This document shows positions 13,689 to 63,538 of a stretch of DNA of 64,000 bases, piece by piece (position 1 is the first letter of the stretch; every line of letters starts with the position of its first letter). This DNA comes from Gammaproteobacteria bacterium. GTDB taxonomy: Bacteria; Pseudomonadota; Gammaproteobacteria; JAURND01. Where the stretch lies: NCBI GenBank assembly GCA_035546635.1, contig DASZWJ010000019.1, positions 229,386-293,385 of the forward strand, in the 5' to 3' direction. A program made the translations under genes and the position numbers. The notes beneath the pieces are model-generated. The model did not search any database. It was not told where the DNA came from and saw nothing but the letters and a program-made list of their open reading frames with translations.

Positions 13689-14651
13689 GTGTCAATACAT
13701 CCTATGACAGACATCACACCCAATGTTCACTGGTTAATTGTTGAAAGCCACTCTGAAGGCCAGCGTATCGATAATTTTTTGTTTTCTCGGCTAAAGGGAG
13801 TCCCTAAGAGTCGTATTTATCGGGCGCTGCGTAATGGTGAATTCCGTGCCAATAAAAAAAGAATTACTGCGGATTACCGCCTGCATGCAGGCGACTCTAT
13901 CCGTATACCACCCTTACGCGTCGCTACCCGTGAAACACCAGCCAAACCAGCGGCAAACTTGATTAAATTACTGGCAGAAGCAGTCATTTATGAAGATAAA
14001 GACATCATTATAGTGAATAAACCCTCCGGTATTGCTGCGCATGGCGGCAGTGGCATTCATTTTGGTGTCATTGAATTGTTGCGACACCTACACCCCAAGT
14101 TAAAATTTTTGGAATTGGTGCATCGCTTAGACCGTGACACCACCGGCTGTTTGATGTTGGCGAAAAAACCTTCTATATTGAAAGAGTTGCATCAATTATT
14201 GGCTCATGGTCAAGTTGAAAAAACCTATTTGGCGTTAGTTGCGCACCCTTTTAACGGTAAAGAGCGCAGAATTAAGGCGGCTTTACAGAAAAATTTATTG
14301 CGCTCGGGTGAGCGGGTGGTTACGGTGAATGCTGAAGGCAAGCCAGCTGAAACCATTATTACGCCTCTTGAGGTTTTCACACATACGTCCCTGATTGCAG
14401 CGAAGCCTCTGACTGGACGCACTCACCAGATTCGCGTACATGCTGCGCATATTGGTCATAGTATTTTAGGCGATGAGAAGTACGGTGATCGCAAAATGGA
14501 TAAGGCTTTGGGGGTTAAACATTTATTGTTGCATGCAGCAGCATTGAAATTTGTGATGCCTACCTCTGGTAAAGCAATTGCTGTGTGTGCTTGTTTGGAT
14601 CAGCATTTTCAGGAGGTTCTAAAAAAAATGCGCGGCTTCTTACAGCCTTGA
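13689..14651 (+). CDS. rluC: 23S rRNA pseudouridine synthase RluC
   Basis: It has an S4-like N-terminus (QRIDNFLFSRLKGVPKSRIYRAL) and the catalytic motif HRLDRDTTGCLMLAK. It is divergent from rne, as in E. coli. The start could be GTG 13689 or ATG 13704. Confidence 0.88.
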   Translation: MSIHPMTDITPNVHWLIVESHSEGQRIDNFLFSRLKGVPKSRIYRALRNGEFRANKKRITADYRLHAGDSIRIPPLRVATRETPAKPAANLIKLLAEAVIYEDKDIIIVNKPSGIAAHGGSGIHFGVIELLRHLHPKLKFLELVHRLDRDTTGCLMLAKKPSILKELHQLLAHGQVEKTYLALVAHPFNGKERRIKAALQKNLLRSGERVVTVNAEGKPAETIITPLEVFTHTSLIAAKPLTGRTHQIRVHAAHIGHSILGDEKYGDRKMDKALGVKHLLLHAAALKFVMPTSGKAIAVCACLDQHFQEVLKKMRGFLQP

Positions 14652-14688
14652 CTTTTTTCCTTCTCCCCTTGTGGGAGAAGGAAAAAAG
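14652..14688. repeat. family A-like perfect palindrome immediately after the rluC stop
   Basis: cttttttccttctcccc ttgt gggagaaggaaaaaag has the same loop/core as family A. The stem differs but remains complementary. Confidence 0.75.
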
Positions 14689-14814
14689 CTAGGGCTGTAA
14701 GAGGAAAAAGTTAAGGCTGTAAGAGGCTATAAGAGATTGATGCCTACCCTAAAACATGGTTTAATGCCCTCCCTCAGCCTGGCTTTTGCCAGCATAATAT
14801 TATTTTAATTTTAC

Positions 14815-16743
<1,929 letters not shown>

Positions 16744-18839: not shown

Positions 18840-20378
18840 ATGCAAAAACCCATCGCATGGACAATCGCCGGCTCCGATTCCGGTGGCGGTGCCGGCATTC
18901 AAGCTGACTTACATACCTTCCAAGCACTTGGTACTTATGGTTGTTCAGTGATTACTGCTGTGACAGCGCAAAATACCTTCTCTGTAACTGCTATTCATAA
19001 TGTGCCTGCTGAAAATGTTGCAGCGCAAATTGCCGCTTTAGCAGAGGATTTAAAGCCTAAAACGATCAAATTAGGCATGTTGGGTGAGTCTGCAGAACCT
19101 ATTGTGCACTTTTTAAAAGAATATTCTGGATCAGTCGTTTTAGACCCGGTGTTGATTTCCACTTCGGCGCACAACTTATTTAGCGATGACATTAACCAGC
19201 GCATTGGCATGATATTGCAAATGCTGCCCTTGGTGACTCTAGTTACTCCTAATATACCTGAAGCTGAAACAATATTAGGCCTGACAATTAATACCCATGC
19301 CGATATCATTAAAGCGGCACAAAAATTTTTATCGCTAGGTGTTCAAAGCGTCATTATCAAAGGCGGTCATATTAAACAAGATCTGTTTGCTCAGGATTAT
19401 TTTACCGATGGTAAAGAAGCTTTCTGGCTAGCTTGTTACCGAGACTTGAATGGAAATTATCATGGTACCGGTTGTACTTTTGCATCAGCCATTACCGCAG
19501 CACTTGCGACAGATTATAATTTATATGATGCTTTAGTCATTGCCAAAATGTATGTGACAGAAGGTATTTATAGTGCAAAAAAATATGGCGCAGGCGCTGA
19601 GCCCGTAATGCATAGTGCATGGTCTAATGAACAGCAGCAATTACCTTTTTTATCTCAAAAACCCCTAACAGAGACAGTTAAGCCATTTCCCGATTGTGGC
19701 GTTAATAAATTGGGACTCTATCCTATTGTTGATGCAGCTTCTTGGCTGACAAAACTTTTACCTTGTGGGGTAACAACCATTCAGCTGCGTGTCAAAAATA
19801 AAACGGGTACTGAATTAGAAAATGAAATTAAAGCTGCAATTGAAATCGCTAAGAAATACAGCGCCCGTTTGTTTATTAATGATTATTGGGAATTGGCAAT
19901 CGCTCATGGCGCTTATGGCGTACACTTGGGTCAGGAAGATCTAAGAACTGCGGATATTCCGCGAATTAAAAACGCAGGTTTACGTTTAGGTATCAGCACA
20001 CATAATTATTATGAACTGGCTATAGCGCATGCGCTTAGACCTTCTTACATTGCTCTAGGACCTATATATCCCACGACCTCCAAAGTGATGCCACACGCAC
20101 CTCAAGGAATTGCACGGCTTAAGCATTGGCGCAATATGCTAAACTATCCACTGGTAGCCATTGGCGGTATTGGTTTGCCACAATTTTCGGAAGTGTCAGC
20201 AGCCGGCGTTGATGGGATTGCTATGATATCAGCCATTACTCAAGCCGAAGAGCCTATAAAAACTACTCAACAAATGTTAGACTTGATTGCAGACCAACAG
20301 CGCTTTTTTCTTCTCCCTCAATGGGATAATGAAAAATATGCCATTAATTCCAATCATAACATGGAATCTAACCCATGA
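18840..20378 (+). CDS. thiDE: fused hydroxymethylpyrimidine/phosphomethylpyrimidine kinase and thiamine-phosphate synthase (ThiD-ThiE)
   Basis: The N-terminal half is ThiD-like (TIAGSDSGGGAGIQADL, GTGCTFASAI). The C-terminal half is ThiE-like (TTIQLRVKNK, GISTHN, VAIGGI). Confidence 0.88.
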   Translation: MQKPIAWTIAGSDSGGGAGIQADLHTFQALGTYGCSVITAVTAQNTFSVTAIHNVPAENVAAQIAALAEDLKPKTIKLGMLGESAEPIVHFLKEYSGSVVLDPVLISTSAHNLFSDDINQRIGMILQMLPLVTLVTPNIPEAETILGLTINTHADIIKAAQKFLSLGVQSVIIKGGHIKQDLFAQDYFTDGKEAFWLACYRDLNGNYHGTGCTFASAITAALATDYNLYDALVIAKMYVTEGIYSAKKYGAGAEPVMHSAWSNEQQQLPFLSQKPLTETVKPFPDCGVNKLGLYPIVDAASWLTKLLPCGVTTIQLRVKNKTGTELENEIKAAIEIAKKYSARLFINDYWELAIAHGAYGVHLGQEDLRTADIPRIKNAGLRLGISTHNYYELAIAHALRPSYIALGPIYPTTSKVMPHAPQGIARLKHWRNMLNYPLVAIGGIGLPQFSEVSAAGVDGIAMISAITQAEEPIKTTQQMLDLIADQQRFFLLPQWDNEKYAINSNHNMESNP

Positions 20379-20803
20379 AACAACTCCTATTTAAATCATT
20401 ATTTTTATTATGCCTAATATTTTCACTGACATCATATGCCTATATCAGATTAGAAAATATCAGCCATACAGAGTTTGAACCTTATACCCATGCAGAGGAT
20501 TTTCGTTGGATCACTGGGAAACTAAAATACCTTGGCGTAGAAGGTCCAACCTGGAGCATCATCTACGATCCTGAGCACAATAATAAATTTTTATTGCTGC
20601 GTGGAGAATATATTTTTCAGCCGCCGGAGAATTTTAAAGACGATGAAATGGTCGTTCTTCAGGGAAGAGTCAAGCATATGGAAATGAGTTCATTTATGAG
20701 TGGCGATTATTATGAGGTACTTAATATAGAATCACTGGATGAACATAACGCCAAAGCAAAACAAGAACTTGAAGAAATAAATAAAGGAAAAAAGAAGAAA
20801 TAG
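20375..20803 (+). CDS. hypothetical exported protein, translationally coupled to thiDE
   Basis: The start overlaps the thiDE stop (ATGA at 20375-20378). It has an N-terminal signal-like sequence (MKQLLFKSLFLLCLIFSLTSYA) and a Lys-rich tail. I recognised no family. Confidence 0.6.
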   Translation: MKQLLFKSLFLLCLIFSLTSYAYIRLENISHTEFEPYTHAEDFRWITGKLKYLGVEGPTWSIIYDPEHNNKFLLLRGEYIFQPPENFKDDEMVVLQGRVKHMEMSSFMSGDYYEVLNIESLDEHNAKAKQELEEINKGKKKK

Positions 20804-24536: not shown

Positions 24537-24647
24537 AAAGGGTAGGGTAAGCGAAAAACATAATTTTTTCTGAACCGAAAATTTTTAACTAATTTTAAAC
24601 AATAATATAATCTCGGTCTTCAATAAACTTTGGTGAAGAAAAAATAT

Positions 24648-26084
24648 ATGCTTATTACCCCCTCTCGAAAAAATTGGTATCGACTTTTATTAATCATGGT
24701 ATTTTTTGCGTTTCTTAGCGCATTCTTCATGATTTTCCTTCCGCATATTAAAGAGGAAGGTCGGTATACCATTGCCTCCATGGAAATGTTTTACAATCAT
24801 TACTATTGGCAACCGACCACGTATGGCGCACATTATCGAAGACCGCCCTTTTTCAATTGGCTAACACTGCCTATTATGCACTGGATAGGTGCCCAAAATG
24901 TACTGGTTGCTTCGCGTATTGTGGCGGCTAGCGGCACTGTGCTTTTAGCCTTGATGTTGTGGTTCTTCAGTCTCCACTTATTTAAAAACAAAGTCTTCGC
25001 GATTTTTAGTGTTGCCGTATTATTTTCTGGAGATTTTCTATTAGGCAAGGCCTGGGTGGCTTACCCTGATACTTGGTTTGCGTTTTTCACGTTTACTGCC
25101 ATTAGCTGCATGTGGATAAGCATTAAAGAACAACGTCCTTTATTTTGGATTCCTATCCCTTTTGTATTATTCGCAGCGCTACTCACCAAAGCGTTCACCT
25201 GTTATATATTTTATGCTACCGCATTATTGGTAGTAACCATAGGGTTAGGATGGTCTAAAAACTGGCGTTATCTACTTAAACCGGCCAGCATTTTAGCCCA
25301 TGCATTAGTGATTATATTACCCCTCACATGGTTTTTGCTGCCTGAATCGACTGGTTTAGCCGGTATGTTAGGAGATGTTTCGGGTTCAATGGCACAACCT
25401 GAGCAATTCACCTGGTTAGGTTATTTTCTAAAAATTCTGTCAACGCCGTTTAGTTTCATTTATTTGCTGCTCCCCATTGATATACTGGTGCTTTATTGTT
25501 TATATCGCTATAAAAAATATCCTACTATCCAGCCGGTCACCCGTTTGGATGGACAATCCATTAAATTATTAATCTGGATTATAGTCTTAAGCATATTACC
25601 TTATTGGTTTTCGACAGCGCATCTGTTAAATCCACGTTATTTATTTCCCTTATTACCCATGATAGCGATAGTGCTAGCCTATTGTGTTTGGCGGGCTGGG
25701 GAAAAAATGGTGGGTTTTGCCATTTTAATATTAATATTTGAGTTGTTCTTGAAGTGTATTTTGGTCATTTTAATTAGCCACCCTGGGAAGTTTACCTCTG
25801 TAGATTTTTCGCTTGACCAAATTGCAAATGATGCCCTCAAGCAAAGTCAGTCATATGCTAATTTAATCTATGTTAGCGATTTCGATGATGGGGGATATGG
25901 GGTGAATATTGCCTCTAAAATTAATATAATCCGTTGGCCTCAACCACCTTTAACGACTGCGCCTGAGCCACTGACCAAAGGTTGTGTGCTTAGCCAGGTG
26001 AATAGTACTAAGTGGGGGGTAGTGCCCAAGGTATATCATGTAAATAACGGGCGGGGTAAGCCTATTTATGTTTATTGCAAATAG
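24648..26084 (+). CDS. polytopic membrane glycosyltransferase, ArnT/PMT-like (GT39/GT83-type fold)
   Basis: It has more than 10 predicted TM helices. Its first periplasmic loop has the pattern EGRY...EMF...W.P...RRPPFFNWL, resembling the ArnT/PMT_2 signature. The start is ATG 24648, or upstream TTG/GTG codons. Confidence 0.55.
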   Translation: MLITPSRKNWYRLLLIMVFFAFLSAFFMIFLPHIKEEGRYTIASMEMFYNHYYWQPTTYGAHYRRPPFFNWLTLPIMHWIGAQNVLVASRIVAASGTVLLALMLWFFSLHLFKNKVFAIFSVAVLFSGDFLLGKAWVAYPDTWFAFFTFTAISCMWISIKEQRPLFWIPIPFVLFAALLTKAFTCYIFYATALLVVTIGLGWSKNWRYLLKPASILAHALVIILPLTWFLLPESTGLAGMLGDVSGSMAQPEQFTWLGYFLKILSTPFSFIYLLLPIDILVLYCLYRYKKYPTIQPVTRLDGQSIKLLIWIIVLSILPYWFSTAHLLNPRYLFPLLPMIAIVLAYCVWRAGEKMVGFAILILIFELFLKCILVILISHPGKFTSVDFSLDQIANDALKQSQSYANLIYVSDFDDGGYGVNIASKINIIRWPQPPLTTAPEPLTKGCVLSQVNSTKWGVVPKVYHVNNGRGKPIYVYCK

Positions 26085-26110
26085 AGGGGGTATGTGAATA
26101 CCCTATCATT

Positions 26111-26186
26111 AAGCAGGCACTTCCCTTCTCCCATCCCGCAAGGGGATTCCCTTCGGTCACAGACGGGAGAAGGGAAGTGCCTGCTT
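26111..26186 (+). repeat. family A' hairpin: 22-bp perfect stem enclosing the conserved 32-nt core
   Basis: The stem aagcaggcacttcccttctccc / gggagaagggaagtgcctgctt encloses atcccgcaaggggattcccttcggtcacagac. It lies 27 nt after the stop of the ArnT-like gene. Confidence 0.85.
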
Positions 26187-26320
26187 ATGGAATGATATGA
26201 TGAATACTTGACCCCTCAGCCCACCTAGACTTGAAAGTGCTCCTTATGCTAAACTCCCGTTTTTATATGATCTGCTTTTCTTTACCCAGTATGCGGCAAT
26301 TGCGGCGAGCTTAATCACTT

Positions 26321-28120
26321 ATGTCGATTCCCTTTTTTGCACTGTTTTCGTCTAATCCCTCAAGCCTACTCAACCTATACAAAAGACTATTAACTTCAGT
26401 CAAACCCTACCGCTTGATCTTTTTACTGGGCATTCTAGGTACGGCTGCATCTTCTGGCATTGACGCTGGTCTGGCTTGGTTGATTAAGCCCATCATTAAT
26501 CACGGCCTAGTGGATAAAAACTTCCATTTTATCCGCATACTGCCGTTTGTGGTTATCCTGATCTTCATTCTGCGTGGTTTTGCCGTATTTATGTCCACTT
26601 ATTACATCGCCAAGGTCGGTAAAAGTGTCGTTATGGACTTCCGCCAGCAAATGTTTGCCCATATGCTCAGGTTACCAGCCAGTTTTTATGATACCCAATC
26701 CTCGGGGCAATTGCTTTCTCGCTTAATCTTTAATGTAGAACAGGTCACGGAAGCGACCACCAATGCCTTGATGATTATGGTGCAAGATGGGGTATTAGCG
26801 ATAGGTCTCATTGTCGTCATGATTTCCTTAAGTTGGCAGATGACCTTGATGTTTATGGTGATTCTACCGATGTTGAGTATCATGATTCGCTATACCAGCA
26901 AAAGAATGCGTCGGCTGAGTTTTAGCGTGCAAAAAGCGATGGGGGAAATTAGCCATATTGCCGAAGAGAGCTTTGAAGGTTACCGCGTGATTCGTACCTT
27001 TGGCGGTGAGGATTATGAAAATAACAAATTTGTCAAAGCTACTAAAGATAATCGTAGACGTGAAATGAAGATTGTCGCCACTAATGCCATCGGCACGGCT
27101 ACCACCCAAATTATTGTCTCGTTTGCAATTGCGCTCATTTTATTTCTAGCTACTTTGCCTCAAGTAGACATTTCACCTGGCACCTTTGCGGCATTAATAG
27201 CCTCCATGTTCGCATTATTACGACCCATACGGCGCATCACGCAAATCAATAACTCCATACAAAAGGGTGTTGCCGGCGCACAAAGTATTTTTGAAATACT
27301 CGATATTGAACCCGAAAAAGATACAGGGACTTTGACCGTACAGCGGGTTAAAGGAGCGATTGAATACCGCGACTTGCGCTTTACTTATCCTCATACTAAA
27401 AAGCAGGTACTGTCAGAAATAAATTTTCATATTAAACCTGGGGAAACTGTGGCCCTGGTCGGCCGTTCTGGCAGCGGCAAAACAACTTTAGTGAGTCTAT
27501 TGCCGCGGTTTTATGAGTTAGAAAAAGGCAGTATTTTAATTGATGGTGTAGACATCCGTGAGTTTCGTCTAGCTGATTTACGCAACCAGTTTGCATTAGT
27601 ATCGCAGCATGTCACTTTATTTAATGACACGATAGCGCGCAATATTGGCTATGGGCGACTCAGCGAGGTCAGTGAAGAGGATATTATACGTGCCGCTGAA
27701 GCAGCCCATGCCATGGATTTTATCCGTGAATTTCCTCAAGGCTTAAATACCCTGATTGGTGAAAATGGCGTGCTGTTATCGGGTGGTCAGCGGCAACGTA
27801 TCGCCATTGCTAGAGCGTTATTAAAAAATTCACCTATTTTAATTCTCGATGAAGCAACCTCATCCTTGGATACAGAATCCGAGCGACGGATTCAAGCAGC
27901 ACTCGATGACCTCATGCGTCATCGCACCACACTGGTGATAGCGCATCGTTTGTCGACTATAGAAAAAGCTGATCGCATTTTAGTGGTGGAGAAAGGCCGG
28001 ATTGTTGAAACCGGCACGCACGCTGAATTAGTGCGCAACAATGGCCATTATGCCTATTTACATGCACTGCAGTTCAAAGACGAGCCTGCCACCAGTGATG
28101 CTGAAGTTGTGGTCATATGA
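26321..28120 (+). CDS. msbA: lipid A export ATP-binding/permease protein MsbA
   Basis: A six-TM domain is followed by an NBD with Walker A GRSGSGKTT, signature LSGGQRQRIAIARAL and Walker B ILILDEATS. Its stop overlaps the lpxK start (ATGA), the conserved msbA-lpxK pairing. Confidence 0.9.
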   Translation: MSIPFFALFSSNPSSLLNLYKRLLTSVKPYRLIFLLGILGTAASSGIDAGLAWLIKPIINHGLVDKNFHFIRILPFVVILIFILRGFAVFMSTYYIAKVGKSVVMDFRQQMFAHMLRLPASFYDTQSSGQLLSRLIFNVEQVTEATTNALMIMVQDGVLAIGLIVVMISLSWQMTLMFMVILPMLSIMIRYTSKRMRRLSFSVQKAMGEISHIAEESFEGYRVIRTFGGEDYENNKFVKATKDNRRREMKIVATNAIGTATTQIIVSFAIALILFLATLPQVDISPGTFAALIASMFALLRPIRRITQINNSIQKGVAGAQSIFEILDIEPEKDTGTLTVQRVKGAIEYRDLRFTYPHTKKQVLSEINFHIKPGETVALVGRSGSGKTTLVSLLPRFYELEKGSILIDGVDIREFRLADLRNQFALVSQHVTLFNDTIARNIGYGRLSEVSEEDIIRAAEAAHAMDFIREFPQGLNTLIGENGVLLSGGQRQRIAIARALLKNSPILILDEATSSLDTESERRIQAALDDLMRHRTTLVIAHRLSTIEKADRILVVEKGRIVETGTHAELVRNNGHYAYLHALQFKDEPATSDAEVVVI

Positions 28121-29100
28121 ATACCTGGGTGAAGGCCTGGTATGACCGTCACCCTTGGCTCTATGCATTAACACCATTTGCCGCTATTTACTGCAGTGCA
28201 GCACAAATCAAACGTTACAGTTATCGAATTGGCCTAAAAAAAACCACGCAATTTGCAGTGCCTGTGATTGTAATCGGCAATGTTACCGTAGGTGGAACCG
28301 GTAAAACCCCATTAGTGATTGCTTTAGCGAAAATCCTCCTTGAACACGGATATAAACCTGGGATAGTCAGTCGTGGTTACGGTGGTCAAGCCGCAACGAC
28401 ACCACAATGGGTAACAGGAAATAGCAACCCTCTGGAAACTGGGGATGAGCCATTATTAATCGCACGGCATACCCTTTGCCCTTTAGTCATTGCCAAACAA
28501 CGTGTCTCGGCAATCACTACTTTACTCAATCATTACCCTTGCGATGTCATACTCAGCGATGATGGTCTGCAGCATTATGCTATGGGAAGGAGCATAGAAA
28601 TTGCTGTCATAGATGGGGTGCGGCGTTTTGGTAATGGTCTTTGCCTGCCAGCCGGTCCGTTACGTGAGCCCTTATCGCGCCTAAAACAAGTGGATTTTAA
28701 GGTGACTCAAGGCAACCCAGAACTGGGTGAATGGGCGATGCAATTGCTGCCGGGAACCATTTATAATCTCGCAAATCCAGAACAAAAATTGCATCCTCAT
28801 GAACATCTACCTCCTGTACACGCCGTAGCCGGCATAGGCAATCCGCAACGCTTTTTTACTCAGCTTGAACAACTGGGATTTACTGTTATTGCGCATCCAT
28901 TTCCCGATCATTATCATTTCCAGCCAGGTGATATTGATTTTGGTAAAAATGCCATCACCATTATGACTGAAAAAGATGCGGTGAAATGTGAAAAATTTGC
29001 GGATGAGCGGCATTGGTGTTTGCCAGTGACTGCACAATGTGATGCGGGTTTTATTAATTTACTGTTGGAAAAATTAGGCTGTCATCCTGGGCGTAAGTGA
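28117..29100 (+). CDS. lpxK: tetraacyldisaccharide 4'-kinase LpxK
   Basis: It has the P-loop GNVTVGGTGKTP and SRGYGG. The last codons (CHPGRK-stop) lie inside a family B repeat. Confidence 0.9.
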   Translation: MNTWVKAWYDRHPWLYALTPFAAIYCSAAQIKRYSYRIGLKKTTQFAVPVIVIGNVTVGGTGKTPLVIALAKILLEHGYKPGIVSRGYGGQAATTPQWVTGNSNPLETGDEPLLIARHTLCPLVIAKQRVSAITTLLNHYPCDVILSDDGLQHYAMGRSIEIAVIDGVRRFGNGLCLPAGPLREPLSRLKQVDFKVTQGNPELGEWAMQLLPGTIYNLANPEQKLHPHEHLPPVHAVAGIGNPQRFFTQLEQLGFTVIAHPFPDHYHFQPGDIDFGKNAITIMTEKDAVKCEKFADERHWCLPVTAQCDAGFINLLLEKLGCHPGRK

Positions 29101-29112
29101 AGGATCTCCTGA
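29081..29112. repeat. family B left half-copy overlapping the lpxK 3' end
   Basis: gtcatcctgggcgtaagtgaaggatctcctga matches the left outer and inner arms of the full copies. No right half is present. Confidence 0.75.
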
Positions 29113-31660: not shown

Positions 31661-31775
31661 GGCGAAAGTAGTGGGGCAGGGGCTTATCAGACCGTCGGGT
31701 TCATGGATGAATCCGTCGAGCGTACACGGACGTATTCACAGCGTGTCTGATAAGCCCCTGCCCACTACTTTCGCC
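31661..31775. repeat. long inverted repeat (about 31-bp arms, about 52-nt spacer)
   Basis: ggcgaaagtagtggggcaggggcttatcagac (31661-31692) pairs with gtctgataagcccctgcccactactttcgcc (31745-31775), with a single-base bulge. It lies between the convergent comEA and lnt genes. Confidence 0.85.
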
Positions 31776-34834: not shown

Positions 34835-34905
34835 AAATTAAGAACTTAAAAATCTTACTTCACAGTTAAGCTAGGGGCTGTCGTCAATTAACCCTCCCCC
34901 CCTGC

Positions 34906-35008
34906 GTCGTCCCGCACTTGTCAGCGGGATCCAGGGAGTCTGGCAGATTTTTTTGGCTTCTTAGCAAGTTTTATCCTCTTCTAGATCTCGCGGAAGCCGC
35001 GGGACGAC
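34906..35008. repeat. family D palindromic element (gtcgtcccgc ... gcgggacgac)
   Basis: It has 10-bp terminal inverted repeats at 34906-34915 and 34999-35008, internal small hairpins, and the gggatccag block shared with family C. Confidence 0.7.
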
Positions 35009-35045
35009 ATAGTAGGGCGCGTGTGACGACAGACCCCAGATTTTA

Positions 35046-35077
35046 TTTTCCTTTTCCCATAAGAGGAAAAGAAAAAG
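35046..35077. repeat. family A-like hairpin (cccataagagg core)
   Basis: ttttccttttcccataagaggaaaagaaaaa lies just downstream of the lapA stop on the minus strand. Confidence 0.55.
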
Positions 35078-35103
35078 TGCAATTCAAAAAACCTGACCAT
35101 TAT

Positions 35104-35412
35104 TCAAGTCTTGTCTGTGGGCTCCAGAGATGAAGTTTCCGCTACAACAGCTTGATTTTTCTCCAATTGTTTTATGTGGTTTTTAAGCGAGCGGTTGCGA
35201 TTTTTTAATTTAAACCAAGGATAAATGGTTGTCAAAAAACCAAGTATAATTCCTATACCCAGGCAATAAACCATTAACAAAGACAATGCAATCTTAGTAT
35301 TTCCAAGATAATAATCTAAAGTGACAGGCGTATCATTACGAACTGCGAAAGTAATGCCTAGCAGTATAATCAGTAGTATTAGTACATAAGAGATGATACG
35401 CATGACTTTCAT
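35104..35412 (-). CDS. lapA: LapA-like (YciS/DUF1049) inner-membrane protein
   Basis: 102 aa with two TM helices and then a basic/helical tail (KLKNRNRSLKNHIKQLEKNQ). It lies downstream of rpsA, the usual lapA neighbourhood. Confidence 0.6.
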   Translation of the reverse strand: MKVMRIISYVLILLIILLGITFAVRNDTPVTLDYYLGNTKIALSLLMVYCLGIGIILGFLTTIYPWFKLKNRNRSLKNHIKQLEKNQAVVAETSSLEPTDKT

Positions 35413-35433
35413 AGAACCTCCTTTTCGCCTTCT

Positions 35434-35585
35434 CCCAAGGGTCGTTGTTGAATAAATCGAATAAATTGAGTGTCAATCTATGTTGGGTGCCATCCGGCTG
35501 AGATTCCGCGACTTGATCGCGGGATCTCAGCCGGATGGCACTAAGCAGAGTAAACCCTTCTTATTTATTCAACAATCCCCAAGGG
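35434..35585. mobile_element. MITE-like element with 13-bp terminal inverted repeats and an 8-bp flanking direct duplication
   Basis: The direct repeat cccaaggg occurs at 35434-35441 and 35578-35585. The TIRs are ttgttgaataaat (35445-35457) and atttattcaacaa (35563-35575). The central 25-bp hairpin spans 35487-35541. No ORF is present. Confidence 0.7.
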
Positions 35586-35619
35586 AAAAAGGAAATGTGA
35601 CCAGTTAAAATAGGCTCCT

Positions 35620-37296: not shown

Positions 37297-37477
37297 TATT
37301 TAAATTCCAGATTCAAATTATCAGCCTCAAGCAATCAGAGGTGAGTTGTAACTGTCATAAATGACAGGGTTAATAATTGCCTTCAGACGATACTTATTCT
37401 AAAGACCCGCATTTTTTAAAACTGAGATAACTGAAAATTATTTAGTCGTTGGCGCGAAATTCAAAAAATGCGCATCG

Positions 37478-37562
37478 TTCCAGCAGGAAGGCCGGATCCA
37501 GTCGCAGGAAAGCGAAACTTTAACTTCCCTGTCAACTGGATCCCGACTCCCTGCCGGGACGG
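37478..37562 (+). repeat. family C element, copy 1
   Basis: ttccagcaggaaggccggatccagtcgcaggaaagcgaaactttaacttccctgtcaactggatcccgactccctgccgggacgg aligns along its length with 63453-63538. It overlaps the cmk 3' end. Confidence 0.8.
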
Positions 37563-44602: not shown

Positions 44603-44619
44603 ATGAACGATGAAGCATT

Positions 44620-44701
44620 GTCATTCCCACCTAGGTGGGAATCTATCCTAATTTTGGCTAGATGCCAGAGAAGAATAGATTCCCGCCTACGCAGGAATGA
44701 C
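44620..44701. repeat. family F composite palindrome built from two ATTCCC-N8-(G/A)GGAAT units
   Basis: gtcattcccacctaggtgggaatctat ... atagattcccgcctacgcaggaatgac has outer and inner inverted repeats. It lies between msrA and hisG. Confidence 0.8.
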
Positions 44702-44740
44702 ATGTTTTTTATATACTTAAATTCACACTAGATAAAGCTG

Positions 44741-45645: not shown

Positions 45646-46956
45646 GTGCATATTCATTTTTGGAATCAGTTATCCGCAATAGAACAGCAAAATCTGCTGG
45701 AAAGACCTAAAGCCAGTCAACCTGACTCAATTCGGGAAAAAACCCAAGCAATTATCGATCAAGTAAGGGAAGAGGGCGATGCAGCGTTAATTGACCTCAC
45801 CGTCCTACACGACAAAGTAAAACTAACCCAATTAACCACTACTTTAGCGGAATTTTCAGCAGCAAAAAATCAAATCCGCAAAGAAGCGTTAGCCGCTATA
45901 GAGCGTGCACAACAGCAGATCACCACTTATCATCAAGCACAACAGCCTGAAATCCGCAAAATTGAAACTGCCCCAGGTATTTACTGTGAGCGTCAGCCAC
46001 GTGCCATTGACAGAGTAGGGCTTTATGTTCCAGGTGGCTCTGCCCCTTTGATTTCTACTTTGCTGATGCTGGCAATTCCAGCACAGTTAGCCGGTTGCTC
46101 ACTCAAAGTCCTCTGCACACCACCGAATAAAAATGGCACTATTGATCCACATTTGTTATATGCTGCAGAGCTGTGTGGTATTCAGCAAATTTTTAAAATC
46201 GGCGGAGCGCAAGCGGTCGCTGCGATGGCCTATGGCACTGAATCTGTACCGAAAGTTGATAAAATCTTTGGGCCAGGAAATGCTTTTGTCCTTGCTGCGA
46301 AAATGTTGGTTTCACAGGATGCCAAAGGTGCCAGTATTGATATGCCTGCTGGTCCATCAGAGCTCCTGGTGATTGCCGATGACAATGCCAATGCAGATTT
46401 TGTTGCTGCAGATTTGTTATCTCAAGCTGAACATGGGATTGATTCGCAAGTGATATTGCTGACCATGTCAGTAGATTTTGCTAACCAAGTTCATGGTGCG
46501 CTTAACCAGCAATTATCCCAGCTATCACGTCGCACAATTGCTGAGCAATCTTTAGCCCATGGCCGTATTATTGTCGTTACCTCTTTGGAACAAGCATTTT
46601 CTATTAGCAATCGTTATGCCCCTGAGCATTTAAGCTTACAAATAACCCACCCAGAGAACTTTCTCACAGAGATTCATAATGCAGGAGCCGTATTTTTAGG
46701 TGACTGGTCAGCTGAAACTATGGGAGACTATATCACCGGTTCTAACCATGTTTTGCCTACTTCAGGTTTTGCGCGCGCCTATAGTGGGTTATCTTTAGTG
46801 GATTTTATGAAGTTTATTAGTTTTCAAAAAGTCAGCCGCCCTGGGTTGCAAGCCCTTGGGCCATTTGCCGAACAATTGGCCGAGCTGGAAGGATTGGATG
46901 CTCACAGAAATGCGGTGTCTATTCGTTTGGGAGTTGACTTTCATCCTGAGCATTAG
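45646..46956 (+). CDS. hisD: histidinol dehydrogenase
   Basis: It has LLSQAEHG and GDYITGSNHVLPT. The start is GTG. The last codons (FHPEH-stop) lie inside family B repeat copy a. Confidence 0.93.
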   Translation: MHIHFWNQLSAIEQQNLLERPKASQPDSIREKTQAIIDQVREEGDAALIDLTVLHDKVKLTQLTTTLAEFSAAKNQIRKEALAAIERAQQQITTYHQAQQPEIRKIETAPGIYCERQPRAIDRVGLYVPGGSAPLISTLLMLAIPAQLAGCSLKVLCTPPNKNGTIDPHLLYAAELCGIQQIFKIGGAQAVAAMAYGTESVPKVDKIFGPGNAFVLAAKMLVSQDAKGASIDMPAGPSELLVIADDNANADFVAADLLSQAEHGIDSQVILLTMSVDFANQVHGALNQQLSQLSRRTIAEQSLAHGRIIVVTSLEQAFSISNRYAPEHLSLQITHPENFLTEIHNAGAVFLGDWSAETMGDYITGSNHVLPTSGFARAYSGLSLVDFMKFISFQKVSRPGLQALGPFAEQLAELEGLDAHRNAVSIRLGVDFHPEH

Positions 46957-47033
46957 TGAAGGATCTCCTTATGGTGGCACTAGCCACATGAAGTACCACC
47001 ATAAGGAGATCCTTCGTTTACGCTCAGGATGAC
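46940..47033. repeat. family B full-length palindromic element, copy a (hisD/hisC junction)
   Basis: The outer 11-bp stem is tcatcctgagc / gctcaggatga. The inner, perfect 20-bp stem is gaaggatctccttatggtgg / ccaccataaggagatccttc. The element contains the hisD stop codon (46954-46956). Confidence 0.9.
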
Positions 47034-47097
47034 AAAAAAATACAGCAACAGCCATATTAACAATTTAATACTTAAGAGCATCTTGAGTACACATATT

Positions 47098-48156: not shown

Positions 48157-49242
48157 ATGAGTTTCTCAAACATGCCACAAGAAAAACTGCTTTTTATCGA
48201 CCGTGACGGGACTTTAATCGAGGAACCAGAAGATCAGCAGATCGATAGCATAGAAAAATTACATTTCCTGCCAGATGTCATTTCTAGTCTATTAAAATTA
48301 AAAACTGCCGGTTACAAATTTATTATGGTCAGCAATCAAGATGGCTTAGGAACTGATAGCTTGCCGCACGGAGATTTTCAGCCACCCCATGAATTAATGC
48401 TGCGTATTCTATCCTCTCAAGGCATTCATTTTGATGCCATACATATCTGCCCACATAAGCCGGACGCCAACTGTGACTGTCGCAAACCCAAAATCGGTTT
48501 ATTAGCGAATTATCTAATCGAACAAAAGATCAACCGTGAGCATTCTTATGTCATCGGTGATCGGCAGACTGATCTAGAATTAGCGCAAAATTTGGGAATA
48601 AAAGGCATCCGCATTCGCACCCCAACCACTCCAGGCTGGGCTGAAGTCGCTCACCAGATTCTATCTCAACCGCGGCAGGTGCAACTCATACGCAAAACTA
48701 AAGAAACTGCAATAGAAGTACAAATTGATCTTGATAAACCTAGTCCCATTCATATCCACACCGGTATCGGTTTTTTCGATCATATGCTGGAACAGTTAGC
48801 TAAACATGGTGGCTTCAGTCTAAAAATAACTGTTGCAGGGGATTTACATATTGACGACCATCATACCGTAGAAGATACGGCCATTACGCTGGGTGAAGCC
48901 ATGCGTGAAGCTTTAGGAGATAAAATAGGTATTGGGCGCTATGGTTTTTTATTGCCTATGGACGAAGCCTTAGCCAGGGTAGCCATTGATTTAAGTGGGC
49001 GCGCGCATTTAACTTTTAAAGCAGCATTTAACCGCGAGCGCGTGGGGGATTTATCCACGGAATTGGTAGAACATTTTTTCCGTTCTTTTGCCGAAGGATT
49101 AAAAGCGACATTGAATATTAAAGTAACAGGGGACAACACCCACCATATGATCGAATCAGTTTTTAAAGGCGTAGGGCGCGCCTTACGCCAGGCTATTGCT
49201 AAAACCGGGGATGATCTACCTAGCACTAAGGGTTTACTATGA
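48157..49242 (+). CDS. hisB: bifunctional histidinol-phosphatase / imidazoleglycerol-phosphate dehydratase
   Basis: It has the N-terminal HAD motif FIDRDGTL and the C-terminal IGPD motif DDHHTVEDTAI. Confidence 0.93.
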   Translation: MSFSNMPQEKLLFIDRDGTLIEEPEDQQIDSIEKLHFLPDVISSLLKLKTAGYKFIMVSNQDGLGTDSLPHGDFQPPHELMLRILSSQGIHFDAIHICPHKPDANCDCRKPKIGLLANYLIEQKINREHSYVIGDRQTDLELAQNLGIKGIRIRTPTTPGWAEVAHQILSQPRQVQLIRKTKETAIEVQIDLDKPSPIHIHTGIGFFDHMLEQLAKHGGFSLKITVAGDLHIDDHHTVEDTAITLGEAMREALGDKIGIGRYGFLLPMDEALARVAIDLSGRAHLTFKAAFNRERVGDLSTELVEHFFRSFAEGLKATLNIKVTGDNTHHMIESVFKGVGRALRQAIAKTGDDLPSTKGLL

Positions 49243-49850
49243 TTGCGATTATTGATGCCTGTGGGGCTAATTTCGCTTCGGTGGAATTTGCACTTAAACG
49301 CTTGGGGCGAGCAGTGACGCTCACGCGAGATAAAGACATCATTCGCTCAGCATCACATGTAATTCTACCTGGCGTAGGCACTGCCAGCCAGGCTATGCAG
49401 CAATTGGAAAATTTACAATTAATTTCAGTGATTCAGCAATTAACGCAACCGGTATTAGGTATCTGTCTTGGCATGCAGATTTTACATGCCCATTCTGCTG
49501 AAGGCGATGTGGATTGTCTAGGCCTTTTGCCAGGGGATATTAAGCCATTGCCAGAAGATCAGGGTTTACCTATTCCACATATGGGTTGGAATCAGCTATG
49601 CATCTCCCATGCGACCAGTTCTTTACTGCAGGATATCCCGAATAATAGCTACGTCTATTACGTGCATAGCTATGCAGCGCCAGTGACTGAGCATACCCTG
49701 GCTACCACCCAATACGGTGCAATATTTACGGCAGCAGTACATTATAAAAATTTTTATGGGGTACAATTTCATCCTGAGCGTTCGGGAGCGGTTGGCGCTA
49801 AGATATTACAGAATTTTCTTGTCCTGAGCGAAAGCGAAGGATCTCCATAA
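49239..49850 (+). CDS. hisH: imidazole glycerol phosphate synthase, glutaminase subunit
   Basis: It has GICLGMQ (nucleophile Cys) and FHPERS. The C-terminal tail (VLSESEGSP-stop) is encoded by family B repeat copy b. Confidence 0.92.
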   Translation: MIAIIDACGANFASVEFALKRLGRAVTLTRDKDIIRSASHVILPGVGTASQAMQQLENLQLISVIQQLTQPVLGICLGMQILHAHSAEGDVDCLGLLPGDIKPLPEDQGLPIPHMGWNQLCISHATSSLLQDIPNNSYVYYVHSYAAPVTEHTLATTQYGAIFTAAVHYKNFYGVQFHPERSGAVGAKILQNFLVLSESEGSP

Positions 49851-49911
49851 TGTGGCGCCTCATCATAAAAGTGCCATCATACGGAGATCCTTCGCTATCG
49901 CTCAGGATGAC
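49819..49911. repeat. family B full-length palindromic element, copy b (hisH/hisA junction)
   Basis: The outer 10-bp stem is tcctgagcga / tcgctcagga. The inner 13-bp stem is gcgaaggatctcc / ggagatccttcgc. The element contains the hisH stop codon (49848-49850). Confidence 0.9.
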
Positions 49912-49932
49912 AGTCAAGGGAAATAAACCTCA

Positions 49933-50676
49933 ATGAAACTATACCCAGCAATCGATTTAAAATCAGGAACCTGTGTCCGCCTTTACAAAGGCTCTTTTGA
50001 CCATGTCACTGCTTATCAAGCATCCCCCTTATCTGTCGCTGAAAATTTTGCCAGTGAAGGCGCAGATTTTCTTCACATCATTGATCTAGATGGCGCTCAA
50101 GAAGGCACCTCCAAACATACATCGTTAGTCTTAGATATTATTGAGAAAACTAGATTGAGCATACAATTAGGTGGCGGCATTCGCAGCTATGCACAATTAT
50201 CCCAATGGTTACACAATGGCGTCACTCGCGTTATTTTAGGTAGCATCGCTCTGTCCGAACCCGAGAAAGTGAACATGTGGCTGCGTGAATTTGGCGCTGA
50301 ACGCATTGTATTAGCGCTAGATATTAGAATGAATAGCGCCAATGAACCCATATTGGCATCACACGGTTGGCAACAAAATAGCGGCATGAGTTTATGGCAT
50401 TTACTTGACCTATATCAGGACAGCCCATTAAAACATGTACTTTGCACGGATATTGATTGCGATGGCACGTTGGCCGGGCCCAATATTTCCCTCTATCAAC
50501 AATGTAGCCAACGCTACCCAAACCTTGATTTTCAAGCCTCAGGTGGGGTCAGCTCCTTAGCCGATCTACGCACATTAGCACAAATGCAAGTTTCCGGTGT
50601 CATTGTCGGCAAAGCACTTTACGAGCGGAAATTTTCTTTAAGTGAAGCATTAATTGAGCTCAGCCATGTTAGCTAA
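49933..50676 (+). CDS. hisA: 1-(5-phosphoribosyl)-5-[(5-phosphoribosylamino)methylideneamino]imidazole-4-carboxamide isomerase
   Basis: It begins [15 protein letters not shown] and has the (beta/alpha)8 pattern GGGIRS ... GGVSS. Confidence 0.92.
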
Positions 50677-54265: not shown

Positions 54266-55201
54266 ATGAATATATTTATACCTGCTGCGGGATTTGGTTC
54301 GCGCTTATCCCCCATTACCTCCCGTATACCTAAACCTTTACTGCCTATTGTTGGCAAACCCTTGCTAGGATTATCGCTGGAAAAACTCAACCGCCTTAAA
54401 CCTAATCAAATAGGTATAAATCTTCACTATCTGCGCGAAGCCTTAACCCAATGGGTTGCGCATTCGCCGTTGCGCAATAAAATACAGCTATTTCCAGAAG
54501 AAACGATTTTAGGTTCTGGTGGCGCACTGAACAATGCCTATTCTTTATTGTGCCAAGATCACTTTCTGGTTTATAACAGTGATGTGCTATGTGATCTAGA
54601 TTTAGAATGGTTAATGCAACAACATTTGAATTCTGAAAACCTAGTCACACTCACCACCTGTCAGCACCCTAAATTTCCTCATGTTAAAGCGAATGTTGCT
54701 ATTAATTCTGAAGGTTTTTTTCAAGGCGTTGACAAAAAGCTTATTCCTTACGCTAAAGTAGCACAATACGTGGCTTATACCAGTATCGCGATGTATTCCC
54801 CTGAGTTTTTACAATTTTTACCTGCAGGAAAATCCAGTGTGCTAGATGCCTGGTTGACAGTAGCCGCCAAAGGTTATCGCATCGGCACCGTAGATATCAG
54901 CGCTTATGACTGGAATGATATAGGCACTCCTGCCGCCTATTTCTCAGCTGCTATGACTAATTTAAAAAGTACTGGTAAATCGGTTTATATCCATCCTTCT
55001 GCCAATGTCAATCGCACTGCGGTCATAGAAGGAGAGGTGATTATTGAAAGATATGCGGTAGTCGAGTCGGGGGTCAGTATTAAAAACTGCTTACTGCTAC
55101 CTGGTGCTGAGTTAATAAAAAACCGGCGCTATGAAAATAGTATCATAGGGCCCGGTTATGAGCTGCCAATGCTGTCATCCTTCGCTTGCGCTCAGGACTA
55201 A
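54266..55201 (+). CDS. sugar-1-phosphate nucleotidyltransferase with a C-terminal left-handed beta-helix
   Basis: It has the N-terminal NTP-transferase signature IPAAGFGSRLSPITSRIPKPLLPIVGKPLL and hexapeptide-like repeats near the C-terminus. It starts 14 bp after namZ. The last codons (FACAQD-stop) lie in a family B half-repeat. Confidence 0.75.
   Translation: MNIFIPAAGFGSRLSPITSRIPKPLLPIVGKPLLGLSLEKLNRLKPNQIGINLHYLREALTQWVAHSPLRNKIQLFPEETILGSGGALNNAYSLLCQDHFLVYNSDVLCDLDLEWLMQQHLNSENLVTLTTCQHPKFPHVKANVAINSEGFFQGVDKKLIPYAKVAQYVAYTSIAMYSPEFLQFLPAGKSSVLDAWLTVAAKGYRIGTVDISAYDWNDIGTPAAYFSAAMTNLKSTGKSVYIHPSANVNRTAVIEGEVIIERYAVVESGVSIKNCLLLPGAELIKNRRYENSIIGPGYELPMLSSFACAQD
55176..55199. repeat. 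family B right half-copy at the convergent gene ends
   Basis: atccttcgcttgcgctcaggact matches the right arm atccttcgctatcgctcaggatgac of copy b. Confidence 0.6.
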
Positions 55202-56775
55202 GAAACCAACGGTCGATTAAGATAGCGCGAAAATTTAGAGAAGCGCACTAAAAATTTATTATACAGAAAAATATTTATTAATTTTTGCTGCAAAGTATTT
55301 TTTCTTGATTCTTGACTTAGCTTCTTAATAACTACTTTTTCAAAATATTTAAGCTTCATTTCCCTTTTTGCTATCAATCCTTCAATTTCATTTAACCAAG
55401 GTCTTAAAGAATTATTCAGTTCAGCTGAAATGATTTTCTGCTCACCCTCGTGAAATAGCTTTAAAAACAGGCTAAAACTCCATTGTTGCGGGTGTGTTGA
55501 TAATATTCCCTGAATTAAATTTAAATAAATATCAGGATAATTTTCTGCCTTTAAGAACATAGGGCTCAAATTCCTGATCGTGACTATTTTTCTGTGAGTT
55601 ACTTCATAGATAAATACTAAAAATGCTAGAAAAATATTTTTAGGCACCATCACATTACGTGCTGCATCTTCAATAGCGCCAAAATCAATGAGCCGTACCG
55701 AACCCTGGGTAGAAATCAGCACATTCCAAACGCGTAAATCATTATGATAAAGACCATGCGCTTCCAAGGCGGCCAATTGTTCCAGAATGTCACCAATAAT
55801 CACATTAGGGTCATAATCCAGTCCCTTGATTATCATGGTGCTTAATAAAATCCCAGGTATTTTTTCACGCAACACCCAACCGCTGTCTTCATGCATTTCA
55901 AAACCCAACAAGCGCGGCAATACATGAGTCACCGAAAATCCACTTTGCAAAAATTTTATTTCACCTACAAGTTCTTCACGGTTGCTCTCTGCTTCATCAC
56001 CTGAGAGTTGAAAATTTTTAAGCATCGTATTAGTGGTAAAATAATAACGTCGTGAGTCTTTATGTGCATCATTCGTAAATTCATGTGAAGTATTAGTCCA
56101 TGAATCAAAATGCGTTAGCTCTTCATTAATATACCAATAATGATTGCTGCAAAAATAGATAGGACGCTGAATTTTTGACAGGTGGGTATGATGGTGTGAT
56201 ATTTGCTGAAAATAAGCAAATTGATCCAATAATTCATAGGGCTGGTCCGGTAGGGAAGTAGCCCATTTTTCAGGCTCTTCTCTAAGAGCGGTTTCGATAA
56301 GACAGGCTGCCGTTCTTTGTGCTAAAAGGCCAATGAAATTTCGAGTAGTCTCAAATCCGATGTGATGACACAGATGATGAAAAACGCTAAGTCCTATGAT
56401 TAAATCAAACTCTTTAATGGGCAAAGCGTCAATTCCGGCTACACAGTCAGCAACTACAAAAGTCGCAGGCAAGGACAAGACTTTAGATAACTCTGTGCAA
56501 AGCTCCACATTTTGCGGAACTATATCAATACCATATACCTCATCACCAACAGCTGCCAGGTTAAAACAGAAGAAACCCTGAGCGCATCCTATATCTAAAA
56601 TCCGCAATGGACGCTGCAACTCAGAACGCAATTTATCAGCAACACTCTGTACGATCCACCATCTATCATAACAGCTGCGCGATGAATTCCCATCAAATTC
56701 ATTAAAACCATAAATTGGTTGATAGATTTCTGGCAAATTACCAATTAGATATTTTATCTGTGAGTTCGATTCCAT
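55198..56775 (-). CDS. WbdD-like bifunctional protein: class I SAM methyltransferase domain plus eukaryotic-like kinase domain (paralogue 2)
   Basis: The MTase motifs are ILDIGCAQG, GID and DLIIGLSVFHHL. The kinase catalytic loop is HGLYHNDLRVWNVLI, followed by LIDFG (DFG). The C-terminal helical segment precedes the amphipathic/basic tail LINIFLYNKFLVRFSKFSRYL. The stop overlaps the stop of the convergent nucleotidyltransferase gene. Confidence 0.65.
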   Translation of the reverse strand: MESNSQIKYLIGNLPEIYQPIYGFNEFDGNSSRSCYDRWWIVQSVADKLRSELQRPLRILDIGCAQGFFCFNLAAVGDEVYGIDIVPQNVELCTELSKVLSLPATFVVADCVAGIDALPIKEFDLIIGLSVFHHLCHHIGFETTRNFIGLLAQRTAACLIETALREEPEKWATSLPDQPYELLDQFAYFQQISHHHTHLSKIQRPIYFCSNHYWYINEELTHFDSWTNTSHEFTNDAHKDSRRYYFTTNTMLKNFQLSGDEAESNREELVGEIKFLQSGFSVTHVLPRLLGFEMHEDSGWVLREKIPGILLSTMIIKGLDYDPNVIIGDILEQLAALEAHGLYHNDLRVWNVLISTQGSVRLIDFGAIEDAARNVMVPKNIFLAFLVFIYEVTHRKIVTIRNLSPMFLKAENYPDIYLNLIQGILSTHPQQWSFSLFLKLFHEGEQKIISAELNNSLRPWLNEIEGLIAKREMKLKYFEKVVIKKLSQESRKNTLQQKLINIFLYNKFLVRFSKFSRYLNRPLVS

Positions 56776-62540: not shown

Positions 62541-62570
62541 CTCATCCTTCTCTTGTGCTCATGATGACAG
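62541..62570. repeat. family B right half-copy (degenerate) after the LuxR gene
   Basis: ctcatccttctcttgtgctcatgatgacag aligns with the right arm of family B, with a few substitutions. Confidence 0.5.
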
Positions 62571-63452: not shown

Positions 63453-63538
63453 TCTCCCGGCAGGAGGCCGGGATCCAGGTCGCAGGAAAGCGAAACTGTG
63501 ATGTCCCTATCAACTGGATTTCGGCTTCCTGCCGGGAC
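63453..63538 (+). repeat. family C element, copy 2
   Basis: tctcccggcaggaggccgggatccaggtcgcaggaaagcgaaactgtgatgtccctatcaactggatttcggcttcctgccgggac has the same orientation and architecture as 37478-37562. Confidence 0.8.

Follow-up and report, generated by a model that had tools for sequence, protein, structure and literature searches.

A TGTC-tagged palindromic repeat at the hisH-hisA junction supplies the last residues of HisH in a gammaproteobacterial genome

Here we describe a palindromic element lying between hisH and hisA in the histidine operon of a gammaproteobacterium (GenBank assembly GCA_035546635.1, contig DASZWJ010000019.1), within a stretch of 64,000 nt that was analysed as a whole and is hereafter called the window. 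The element is a dimer of two inverted modules of the repetitive extragenic palindrome (REP) type, and we refer to it as copy b, copy a being a related element at the hisD-hisC junction of the same operon. The junction contains the following features.

49239-49850, plus strand: hisH open reading frame (ORF), 203 aa, glutamine amidotransferase subunit of imidazole glycerol phosphate synthase (PF00117)
49820-49912, no strand assigned: whole element, copy b, 93 nt; two inverted REP modules joined as a dimer, their TGTC tags facing outward
49820-49847, plus strand: left arm of copy b; TGTC tag at 49820-49823, local hairpin at 49821-49842, tail CTCC
49848-49883, plus strand: spacer of copy b, 36 nt; hisH TAA at 49848-49850, apical stem 49852-49858 / 49871-49877
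49884-49912, minus strand: right arm of copy b, TGTCAT-CC-TGA-GC-GATA-GC-GAA-GG-AT-CTC; a perfect fit to the cross-phylum consensus, with 1 mismatch to the search pattern
49913-49932, plus strand: rest of the hisH-hisA gap, 20 nt, outside the hairpin; AAGGGA Shine-Dalgarno-like sequence at 49916-49921
49933-50676, plus strand: hisA ORF, 247 aa (PF00977), with its ATG at 49933

Read directly, the outer tags of copy b are TGTC at 49820-49823 on the plus strand and GACA at 49909-49912, that is TGTC on the minus strand. Between them runs an inverted repeat whose 35-nt arms (49822-49856 and 49873-49907) are 86% complementary. As RNA, 49819-49911 is predicted to fold into a single long hairpin with a minimum free energy of -59.3 kcal/mol, against -26.1 +/- 3.7 kcal/mol in dinucleotide shuffles (z = -8.9, with 0 of 200 shuffles as good), and this hairpin has an outer stem of 13 pairs, two of them G.U, which a 1-nt mismatch separates from an inner stem of 14 pairs, with a small apical stem on top. 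An earlier reading of the locus, made from the letters alone (hereafter the sequence-only reading), had delimited the element to 49819-49911 with stems of 10 and 13 bp. Those limits are the base of the minimum free energy hairpin and not of the element itself, and the layout of one outer and one inner stem holds with lengths of 13 and 14 pairs. When the arms are folded individually, ViennaRNA gives exactly the shape of the covariation model described below, the local hairpin of the left arm being GUCCU-GA-GC-GAAA-GC-GA-AGGAU (-9.3 kcal/mol). Compared with the consensus TGTCATCCTGAGCG, the left arm misses ATC, an in-frame loss of 3 nt, after which it pairs GU/UA where the consensus has A-T/T-A. 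Each arm can be predicted to fold alone, and both arms jointly to form a hairpin of 35 bp.

The hairpin of copy b is not an intrinsic terminator because no T-run follows it (the sequence continues with GTCAAGGGAAAT), and a terminator scan gave no site at 49819-49925. A scan of the whole window at the Rfam gathering thresholds found no family at copy b, its sole match being a thiamine pyrophosphate (TPP) riboswitch at 14810-14916, and a permissive scan of 49700-50000 returned only sub-threshold miRNA-like hairpins (mir-889, 32.8 bits vs 95). The tRNA/tmRNA scan found none. For the CUGA..GAA core of the arm, inspection led us to reject a hammerhead, whose NGA is absent, as well as a K-turn or a group II domain V, as the 3-nt bulge is missing and the stem is not long enough.

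The HisH protein ends in QNFLVLSESEGSP before its stop codon. The DNA of hisH 5' of the element finishes with CAGAATTTTCT, and the boundary between gene and element reads cag aat ttt ctT GTC CTG AGC GAA AGC GAA GGA TCT CCA TAA tgtggcgcctcatcataaaagtgccatcatacGGAGATCCTTCGCTATCGCTCAGGATGACAgtcaagggaaataaacctcaATG. Residues 195-203 (VLSESEGSP) are encoded by the element, from GTC at 49821 to CCA at 49847, and the TAA of 49848-49850 follows (NFLVLSESEGSP being the tail and ILQNFLVLSESEGSP the C-terminal peptide). This is in agreement with the sequence-only reading, according to which HisH runs about 9 codons into the element before reaching a TAA. Public data contain an identical protein of 203 aa under the annotation HisH, from a gammaproteobacterial metagenome-assembled genome, and the next relatives are at most 73% identical and mostly 195-200 aa long. 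In a 20-sequence alignment, the 19 orthologues end two or three residues after NFL (NFLELS, NFLKL, NFLMLE), the N-F being invariant, and the query adds ESEGSP; the hisH of the nearest relative ends gag aat ttt ttg gag ctt tct tag (ENFLELS and stop). Because the orthologues stop at these positions, the net extension would be only about six of the nine element-encoded residues. The same alignment settles whether HisH orthologues free of the element share the tail, as they are without it. Also as proposed before, the 82-nt gap between hisH and hisA is mostly element, 62 of the 82 nt (49851-49912) belonging to it, and in the context fold the ribosome-binding site of hisA is unpaired with the element. 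As for the native end of hisH, deletion in silico of 91, 92 or 93 nt yields ..SQGK and stop, ..VKGNKPQ and stop (with an ATGA overlap with hisA), or read-through, three different outcomes that are all plausible and undecidable among themselves.

Two further observations concern this junction. A 9-codon mini-ORF (49907-49936) begins in the terminal ATGACA of the element and its TGA overlaps the hisA ATG (ATGA); the 3' arm hides its start, which has no good Shine-Dalgarno sequence. About 40 nt upstream of the element, the hisH DNA coding for the catalytic FHPER motif (49767-49780, TTTCATCCTGAGCG) has 12 nt in common with the beginning of the REP arm (TCATCCTGAGCG), and this stretch can pair with the right arm (19 nt, 84%). 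Since the relative encodes FHPER by CATCCAGAACGC, the match looks like a coincidence of codon choice, which could nevertheless have some relevance to recombination or targeting.

The arm of copy b is found far beyond this genome. In a cross-species scan of one genome per species with the pattern CCTGRGCNNNNRNGAAGGATCTCC, the arm core was present in at least 120 stretches and more than 15 phyla, its carriers including alpha-, beta-, gamma- and delta-proteobacteria, Cyanobacteria, Chloroflexota, Bacillota, Bacteroidota, Chlorobiota, Acidobacteriota, Verrucomicrobiota, Planctomycetota, Patescibacteria, Nitrospirales, Gemmatimonadales and Calditrichia. The consensus module, of about 28 nt, reads (T/C)GTC tag, AT, yy, U-GA, GC-GNNA-GC as inner stem-loop, GA-A, rr, AT and CTC. 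GTCAT, which is absent from the search pattern, stands directly upstream of 115 of the matches listed, usually as TGTCAT or CGTCAT, and 67 of these 115 GTCAT-tagged matches have the inverted tag ATGAC 30-125 nt downstream, the partner arm taking the form GAGAT-rr-TTC...TCA-yy-ATGAC. When partner arms were chosen by the tag alone (63 unique), TGA followed GTCATyy in 56, and 49 of these 56 carried the complementary GAA-rr-AT. For 125 arms outside the search-pattern selection, the bases before CAT were TGT in 85 and CGT in 18, and the tail after ..AT was CTC in 72 and CCC in 17.

The variation among arms preserves pairing. The yy/rr positions occur as TC/GA (43), CC/GG (39), GC/GC (14) and GT/AC (7), and the inner stem-loop shows compensatory swaps among GC-GNNA-GC, GGCC-UUUA-GGCC, GGCGG-AAA-CCGCC and GGGG-UACG-CCCC; the loops of the family are mostly GNNA or 3-nt, and in some lineages the inner stem-loop is longer. 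We scored the model ....(((((..((....))..))))).... on 38 arms not selected by the query, and found 98.1% pairing against 89.3% in column shuffles and 19-45% in slid controls, with 23 double-change cells compared to 5.0 in the shuffles, none of 500 reaching 23. Because of these compensatory changes and the same shape given by ViennaRNA, each arm is a small hairpin in which a tag precedes a stem that A-T and T-A close, followed inwards by two covarying pairs, U-A, the tandem G.A/A.G and an inner stem; the loop is GNNA and the tail CTC.

One of the reading frames of the arm is closed by a built-in TGA (+7 from the G of GTCAT) and two are open, and HisH entered an open one. The stop codons of long ORFs upstream of 108 arms are evenly spread in the cross-phylum survey, with no extra pile-up of arms at stop codons; of the 108, 12 fall inside the arm, and the built-in frame-3 TGA accounts for 7 of these. 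ORF clustering in the 120 motif-bearing loci listed gave no recurrent neighbour that would point to an associated protein. Phages were considered as vector and discarded, as only 14 viral contigs had the arm. Tandem arrays of arms with periods of ~118 nt, 70 nt and 87 nt, and not isolated dimers, were seen in Ruminococcaceae, Acidobacterium and a viral contig.

When up to 3 mismatches are allowed, the arm consensus has 5 matches in the window, compared to 0.00 expected, which bears out the earlier view of copy b as a second copy of a dispersed palindromic family. The other units, together with a dimer from another family of the tagged-REP super-family discussed below, are the following.

46939-47034, no strand assigned: copy a, at the hisD-hisC junction, 78% identical to copy b
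29080-29109, plus strand: single arm, which encodes GCHPGRK at the end of lpxK (28117-29100) and its stop
55173-55198, plus strand: collapsed copy, TGTC-ATCC fused to the right-arm interior (TTCGCTTGCGCTCAGG)
62541-62569, minus strand: degenerate single unit (TGTCATCATGAGCACAAGAGAAGGATGAG), between convergent genes
44619-44702, no strand assigned: dimer of a different family (TGTCATTCCC-N-GGGAATC, CGTC-1 / dRS3 / RPE-6 type), between msrA and hisG

The spacers of copies a and b differ, yet they are recognisably homologous (86%). Copy a carries GAGCATTAGTGAAGG at the place where copy b has GAGCGAAAGCGAAGG, which creates a TAG at 46954-46956 and ends HisD as ...GVDFHPEH after only five arm-encoded residues; the C-terminus of HisD is SIRLGVDFHPEH with copy a, compared to SIRLAAIDQVLNK in the relative (...AAIDQVLNK). 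In the arm of copy a, two transitions (GCG to GCA and GCG to GTG) make TAG and TGA stops. The sequence-only reading had taken this stop block as the original state, mutated in copy b. The direction is the reverse, since GAGCG-NNA-GCGAAGG, which copy b has, is the consensus in more than 100 loci of many phyla, and copy a with GAGCATTAGTGAAGG is the derived, mutated copy. An ATG at 47029 in the right tag of copy a opens a longer possible hisC ORF, an independent gene call beginning 69 nt downstream.

The collapsed copy provides the last 10 residues (AVILRLRSGL) and the stop of the NTP-transferase ORF at 54266-55201, and two convergent ORFs, this one and 55198-56775, end within it; its sequence is as expected if a deletion had occurred between the two ATCC motifs of a dimer. 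Four units give the upstream gene its last residues and stop, namely copy a in HisD, copy b in HisH, the single arm in LpxK and the collapsed copy in the NTP-transferase. Only 22 nt separate lpxK from the next gene, an MFS transporter (29123).

Elements of this kind have been described. The CGTC-tagged REP super-family was reported by Di Nocera, De Gregorio and Rocco (2013, BMC Genomics 14:522; PMC3733652), and its members include the Neisseria dRS3 and Rickettsia RPE-6 (CGTC-1) and RPE-4 (CGTC-4), with a tag CGTC that is often TGTC, a stem of 8-9 positions starting with A and T, and a loop of 4-5 nt. According to the same paper, these repeats occur in several phyla, mainly as dimers with spacers of 20-100 bp, near the 3' ends of ORFs, with intragenic and C-terminal copies and no dedicated transposase, and a table of encoded peptides includes VIPAKAGI, SFPRKRES, CHSRESGNP, VIPWLDHGI, VIAGLDPAI and RHSELVSGS. 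Five of six general features taken from this description are present in our element. It has TGTC at both outer ends, a 9-position stem (AT-yy-U-GA-GC / GC-GA-A-rr-AT) with A5-T26 and T6-A25, which the right arm of copy b matches exactly with positions 6-7 being a tandem G.A and not Watson-Crick, loops of GAAA in the left arm and GATA in the right one, an inverted dimer with a spacer of 36 nt, and no flanking transposase among the 120 loci listed or the ORFs of the window. The outward orientation of the tags is as in the dimers of R. conorii and S. wittichii, as far as it can be inferred from the peptides given for them. There are also differences from what is described for CGTC REPs: in some lineages the inner stem-loop of our arm varies in length, and the range of the arm extends to many more phyla, Cyanobacteria, Chloroflexota, Bacillota and Patescibacteria among them. 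Full-text literature searches with the arm sequence, its variants and the encoded peptides gave only unrelated primer matches or nothing. Judged by peptides and description, the element lies in, or next to, the CGTC/TGTC super-family, probably as a family that was uncatalogued in 2013.

Other known systems share part of this architecture. Bertels and Rainey reportedly described in 2011 the REPINs, said to be built from GTAG-tagged REPs, with a single-copy RAYT gene that is flanked by those REPs. Copy b resembles them in having two inverted hairpin modules with a short, partly conserved spacer, forming a single unit with a long hairpin possible, and singletons in the window resemble decayed dimers, such as the collapsed dimer of 55173-55198. 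It differs in its TGTC tag, as opposed to GTAG, and in that there is no Y1/HUH gene in the window, no Y1_Tnp (RAYT) match being found in its 64 kb or in 20 kb of the overlapping contig.

A close functional precedent comes from Coxiella burnetii, where QMITE2 and QMITE1 are hairpin-forming palindromes that overlap functional genes at their 3' ends; EnhC of strain Dugway takes its stop and its last 33 residues from QMITE2, and processing by RNase III has been proposed (Wachter et al. 2018, PMC5896051). QMITE2 is likewise a gammaproteobacterial palindrome that rewrites the 3' end of a gene; however, it has 150-190 bp and direct repeats of 7-11 nt, contains a GTAG REP targeted by IS1111, and has no sequence relation to copy b. 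In E. coli, REPs located within 15 nt of a stop codon cause ribosome stalling and lower upstream translation (Liang, Rudd and Deutscher 2015, as summarised in PMC12306157), and a REP or bacterial interspersed mosaic element (BIME) near the stop also protects the 3' end of the mRNA (same source). The likeness to those cases is a stable palindrome at the stop of the upstream gene in a polycistronic mRNA. The difference is that copy b, of another family and with another tag, holds the stop inside the palindrome, in the spacer and past the whole 5' arm, and therefore the ribosome must melt the helix before terminating.

Taking these results together, we consider it very probable that copy b is a non-autonomous dispersed palindromic repeat, an inverted REP dimer with its tags outward that belongs in or next to the CGTC/TGTC super-family and landed at the 3' end of hisH. 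Several points weigh against this interpretation. An exact scan of metagenome contigs for an empty-site allele, with the 5' end of hisA as query, gave 0 matches, and the protein collection has no HisH more than 73% identical, so that the insertion event and its exact target are not reconstructable. No target-site duplication is visible, as no direct repeat is common to the flanks AGAATTTTCT and GTCAAGGGAA. With an identity of only 78%, copies a and b show no sign of recent mobility. A clear bias against divergent junctions was not reproduced in a crude cross-phylum junction analysis, in which 13% of unidirectional, 13% of divergent and 17% of convergent junctions were occupied. The 3' tail of the arm is CTC (CTCC in copy b), compared to mostly CCA in the description of the super-family, which neither mentions a conserved tandem G.A/A.G within the stem for CGTC-1 to CGTC-4 nor has the arm peptides CHPER.., VILSE.. 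or ..EILR.AQDD in its peptide table for these families. Finally, the effects of the hairpin and the tail on RNA and protein are ones that we infer.

An alternative explanation may be that the hairpin is under selection inside the operon, being kept or recruited to set the ratio of hisGDCBH to hisAFIE through mRNA processing, stabilisation or translational uncoupling. It is indeed a very stable hairpin in a polycistronic operon whose other junctions overlap or nearly abut, the 3' end of hisH or the hisH-hisA junction holds a palindromic element in at least 4 lineages, and REPs of E. coli are known to influence the decay and translation of mRNA (PMC12306157). However, the hisH-hisA elements seen in other lineages come from different families, and neither their length nor their position is the same, which means that permissiveness recurs and not a device, and the family of copy b is also found at unrelated gene ends (lpxK and the NTP-transferase). 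In the his operon of the closest relative there are four palindromic elements of three families, located at hisG/D (one of them of the family of copies a and b, called family B), at hisD/C and at hisH/A. In another lineage, a CGTC-tagged dimer (CGTCATTGCGAGG...GCTCGCAATGACG, 2103-2196 there) is translated as ~33 residues at the C-terminus of HisH, and in a further one a GTAG REP dimer (1700-1788 there) adds AGILFCRGGS, about 10 residues. The end of hisH is, in this sense, a repeatedly colonised permissive site and not the seat of a conserved device, because other lineages carry different REP families there. Nor is the his operon special within its own genome. REP-like palindromes of at least 5 families occupy ~15 of the ~56 gene junctions of the window, so the 2 occupied his junctions out of 7 equal the background (binomial P ~0.4); the sequence-only reading had seen in the two insertions a target preference or selection for intra-operon hairpins, which was reading too much into them. 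We regard this explanation as unlikely. The HisH tail is a common side-effect of such repeats and not a histidine-specific device.

Less likely still is that copy b is a classical miniature inverted-repeat transposable element (MITE), that is, a deletion derivative of an insertion sequence with a DDE transposase, moved by cut-and-paste through its terminal inverted repeats. The element is MITE-like in being small and multi-copy, with terminal inverted repeats and no coding capacity, and in Caldora and Symploca the module is nested in longer inverted-repeat elements. Against this account, the flanks of copy b lack the target-site duplication, no parent insertion sequence or transposase is near the 120 loci listed or in the window (a Pfam scan of its ORFs of at least 110 aa found no transposase domain), single arms are common, and the compensatory changes keep the internal hairpin of the arm, which is expected for structure-specific recognition of single-stranded DNA or RNA and not for a duplex terminal-repeat site; we therefore find it very improbable. 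We can practically discard a chimera made in assembly, or an inverted repeat that arose at random and happened to extend the ORF. The source is a metagenome-assembled genome and assembly errors can yield palindromes, but the HisH protein of the window is present in five contigs, and a 301-nt stretch across the element is identical in independently assembled contigs of two other runs, SRR12170517 and SRR12170509, the former with 3 other differing positions over 20.6 kb. The comparison excludes the assembly artefact that the earlier reading had named as a concern. Regarding chance, no shuffle reaches the observed fold energy, and the family occurs in at least 120 stretches of species-representative genomes.

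If copy b is the dispersed REP dimer that we favour, it would have inserted into the 3' end of hisH or right at it, removing the native stop codon, and translation would run through the left arm in an open frame (V-L-S-E-S-E-G-S-P) up to the TAA of the spacer. HisH would thereby have gained a tail about 6 residues longer, presumably neutral, and 82 nt, mostly a very stable hairpin, would have come to separate hisH from hisA, in an operon where the other his junctions of the window overlap or nearly abut. In the polycistronic his mRNA, the hairpin would uncouple the translation of hisH and hisA; its helix may be an obstacle to 3' exonucleases or a site for RNase III and, by analogy with the E. 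coli REPs, may slow the ribosomes finishing hisH. The spread of the family could be explained by a trans-acting enzyme, HUH/RAYT-like, that reads the tagged hairpin as single-stranded DNA, and for CGTC-tagged REPs no mobilising enzyme is known (PMC3733652).

Beyond this family, the genome is unusually rich in REP-like elements, with a density of about 1 per 4-5 kb. At least 4 further families of intergenic palindromes are found in the window, for example of the CCCCTCTCCCC-TTGT-GGGAGAGGG and GGGAGAAGG types. The further palindromes are located as follows.

687-726, 5290-5371, 7880-8051, 14635-14727, 26110-26187, 31674-31763, 34868-35592, 37476-37561 and 63455-63537, no strand assigned: further palindromes

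The TPP riboswitch (74 bits) is upstream of thiC, directly after the palindrome at 14635-14727. Three ORFs of the window have no Pfam match at E <= 0.001, namely 9240-10808 (522 aa), 20375-20803 (142 aa) and 24630-26084 (484 aa). In the relative, the palindromic elements of the his operon lie at its positions 1980-2380, 3660-3790 and 6595-6790, with the family-B dimer after hisG; the others are of the GGGGGAAGG type, and their ends share CTAGTGGCAC, which is also present in family-B spacers (GTGGCAC).

For the his operon itself the consequences are small, as the element is one more REP-type palindrome at a gene junction that rewrites the last residues of a protein. Dimers, location at gene ends, added protein residues and the lack of a known transposase are already known for tagged REPs (PMC3733652). 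Still, annotators and comparisons of protein length should recognise C-termini encoded by REPs. The wider interest lies in a strikingly conserved, structured arm module present across most bacterial phyla, in a super-family without a known mobilising enzyme. We propose, only tentatively and with somewhat more doubt than conviction, that the arm represents an uncatalogued pan-bacterial family of tagged REPs spanning more than 15 phyla, in which the invariant G.A pairs and the covarying stems would suggest that a trans-acting enzyme or a host factor recognises the structure. The definition of the module (tag, A/T-closed stem, tandem G.A, GNNA loop) provides a search model for cataloguing such repeats and for screening for the protein that recognises them. 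If the proposal is true, this family would offer a handle on the mobiliser of the 'orphan' CGTC-type REPs, the tail of HisH being a by-product.

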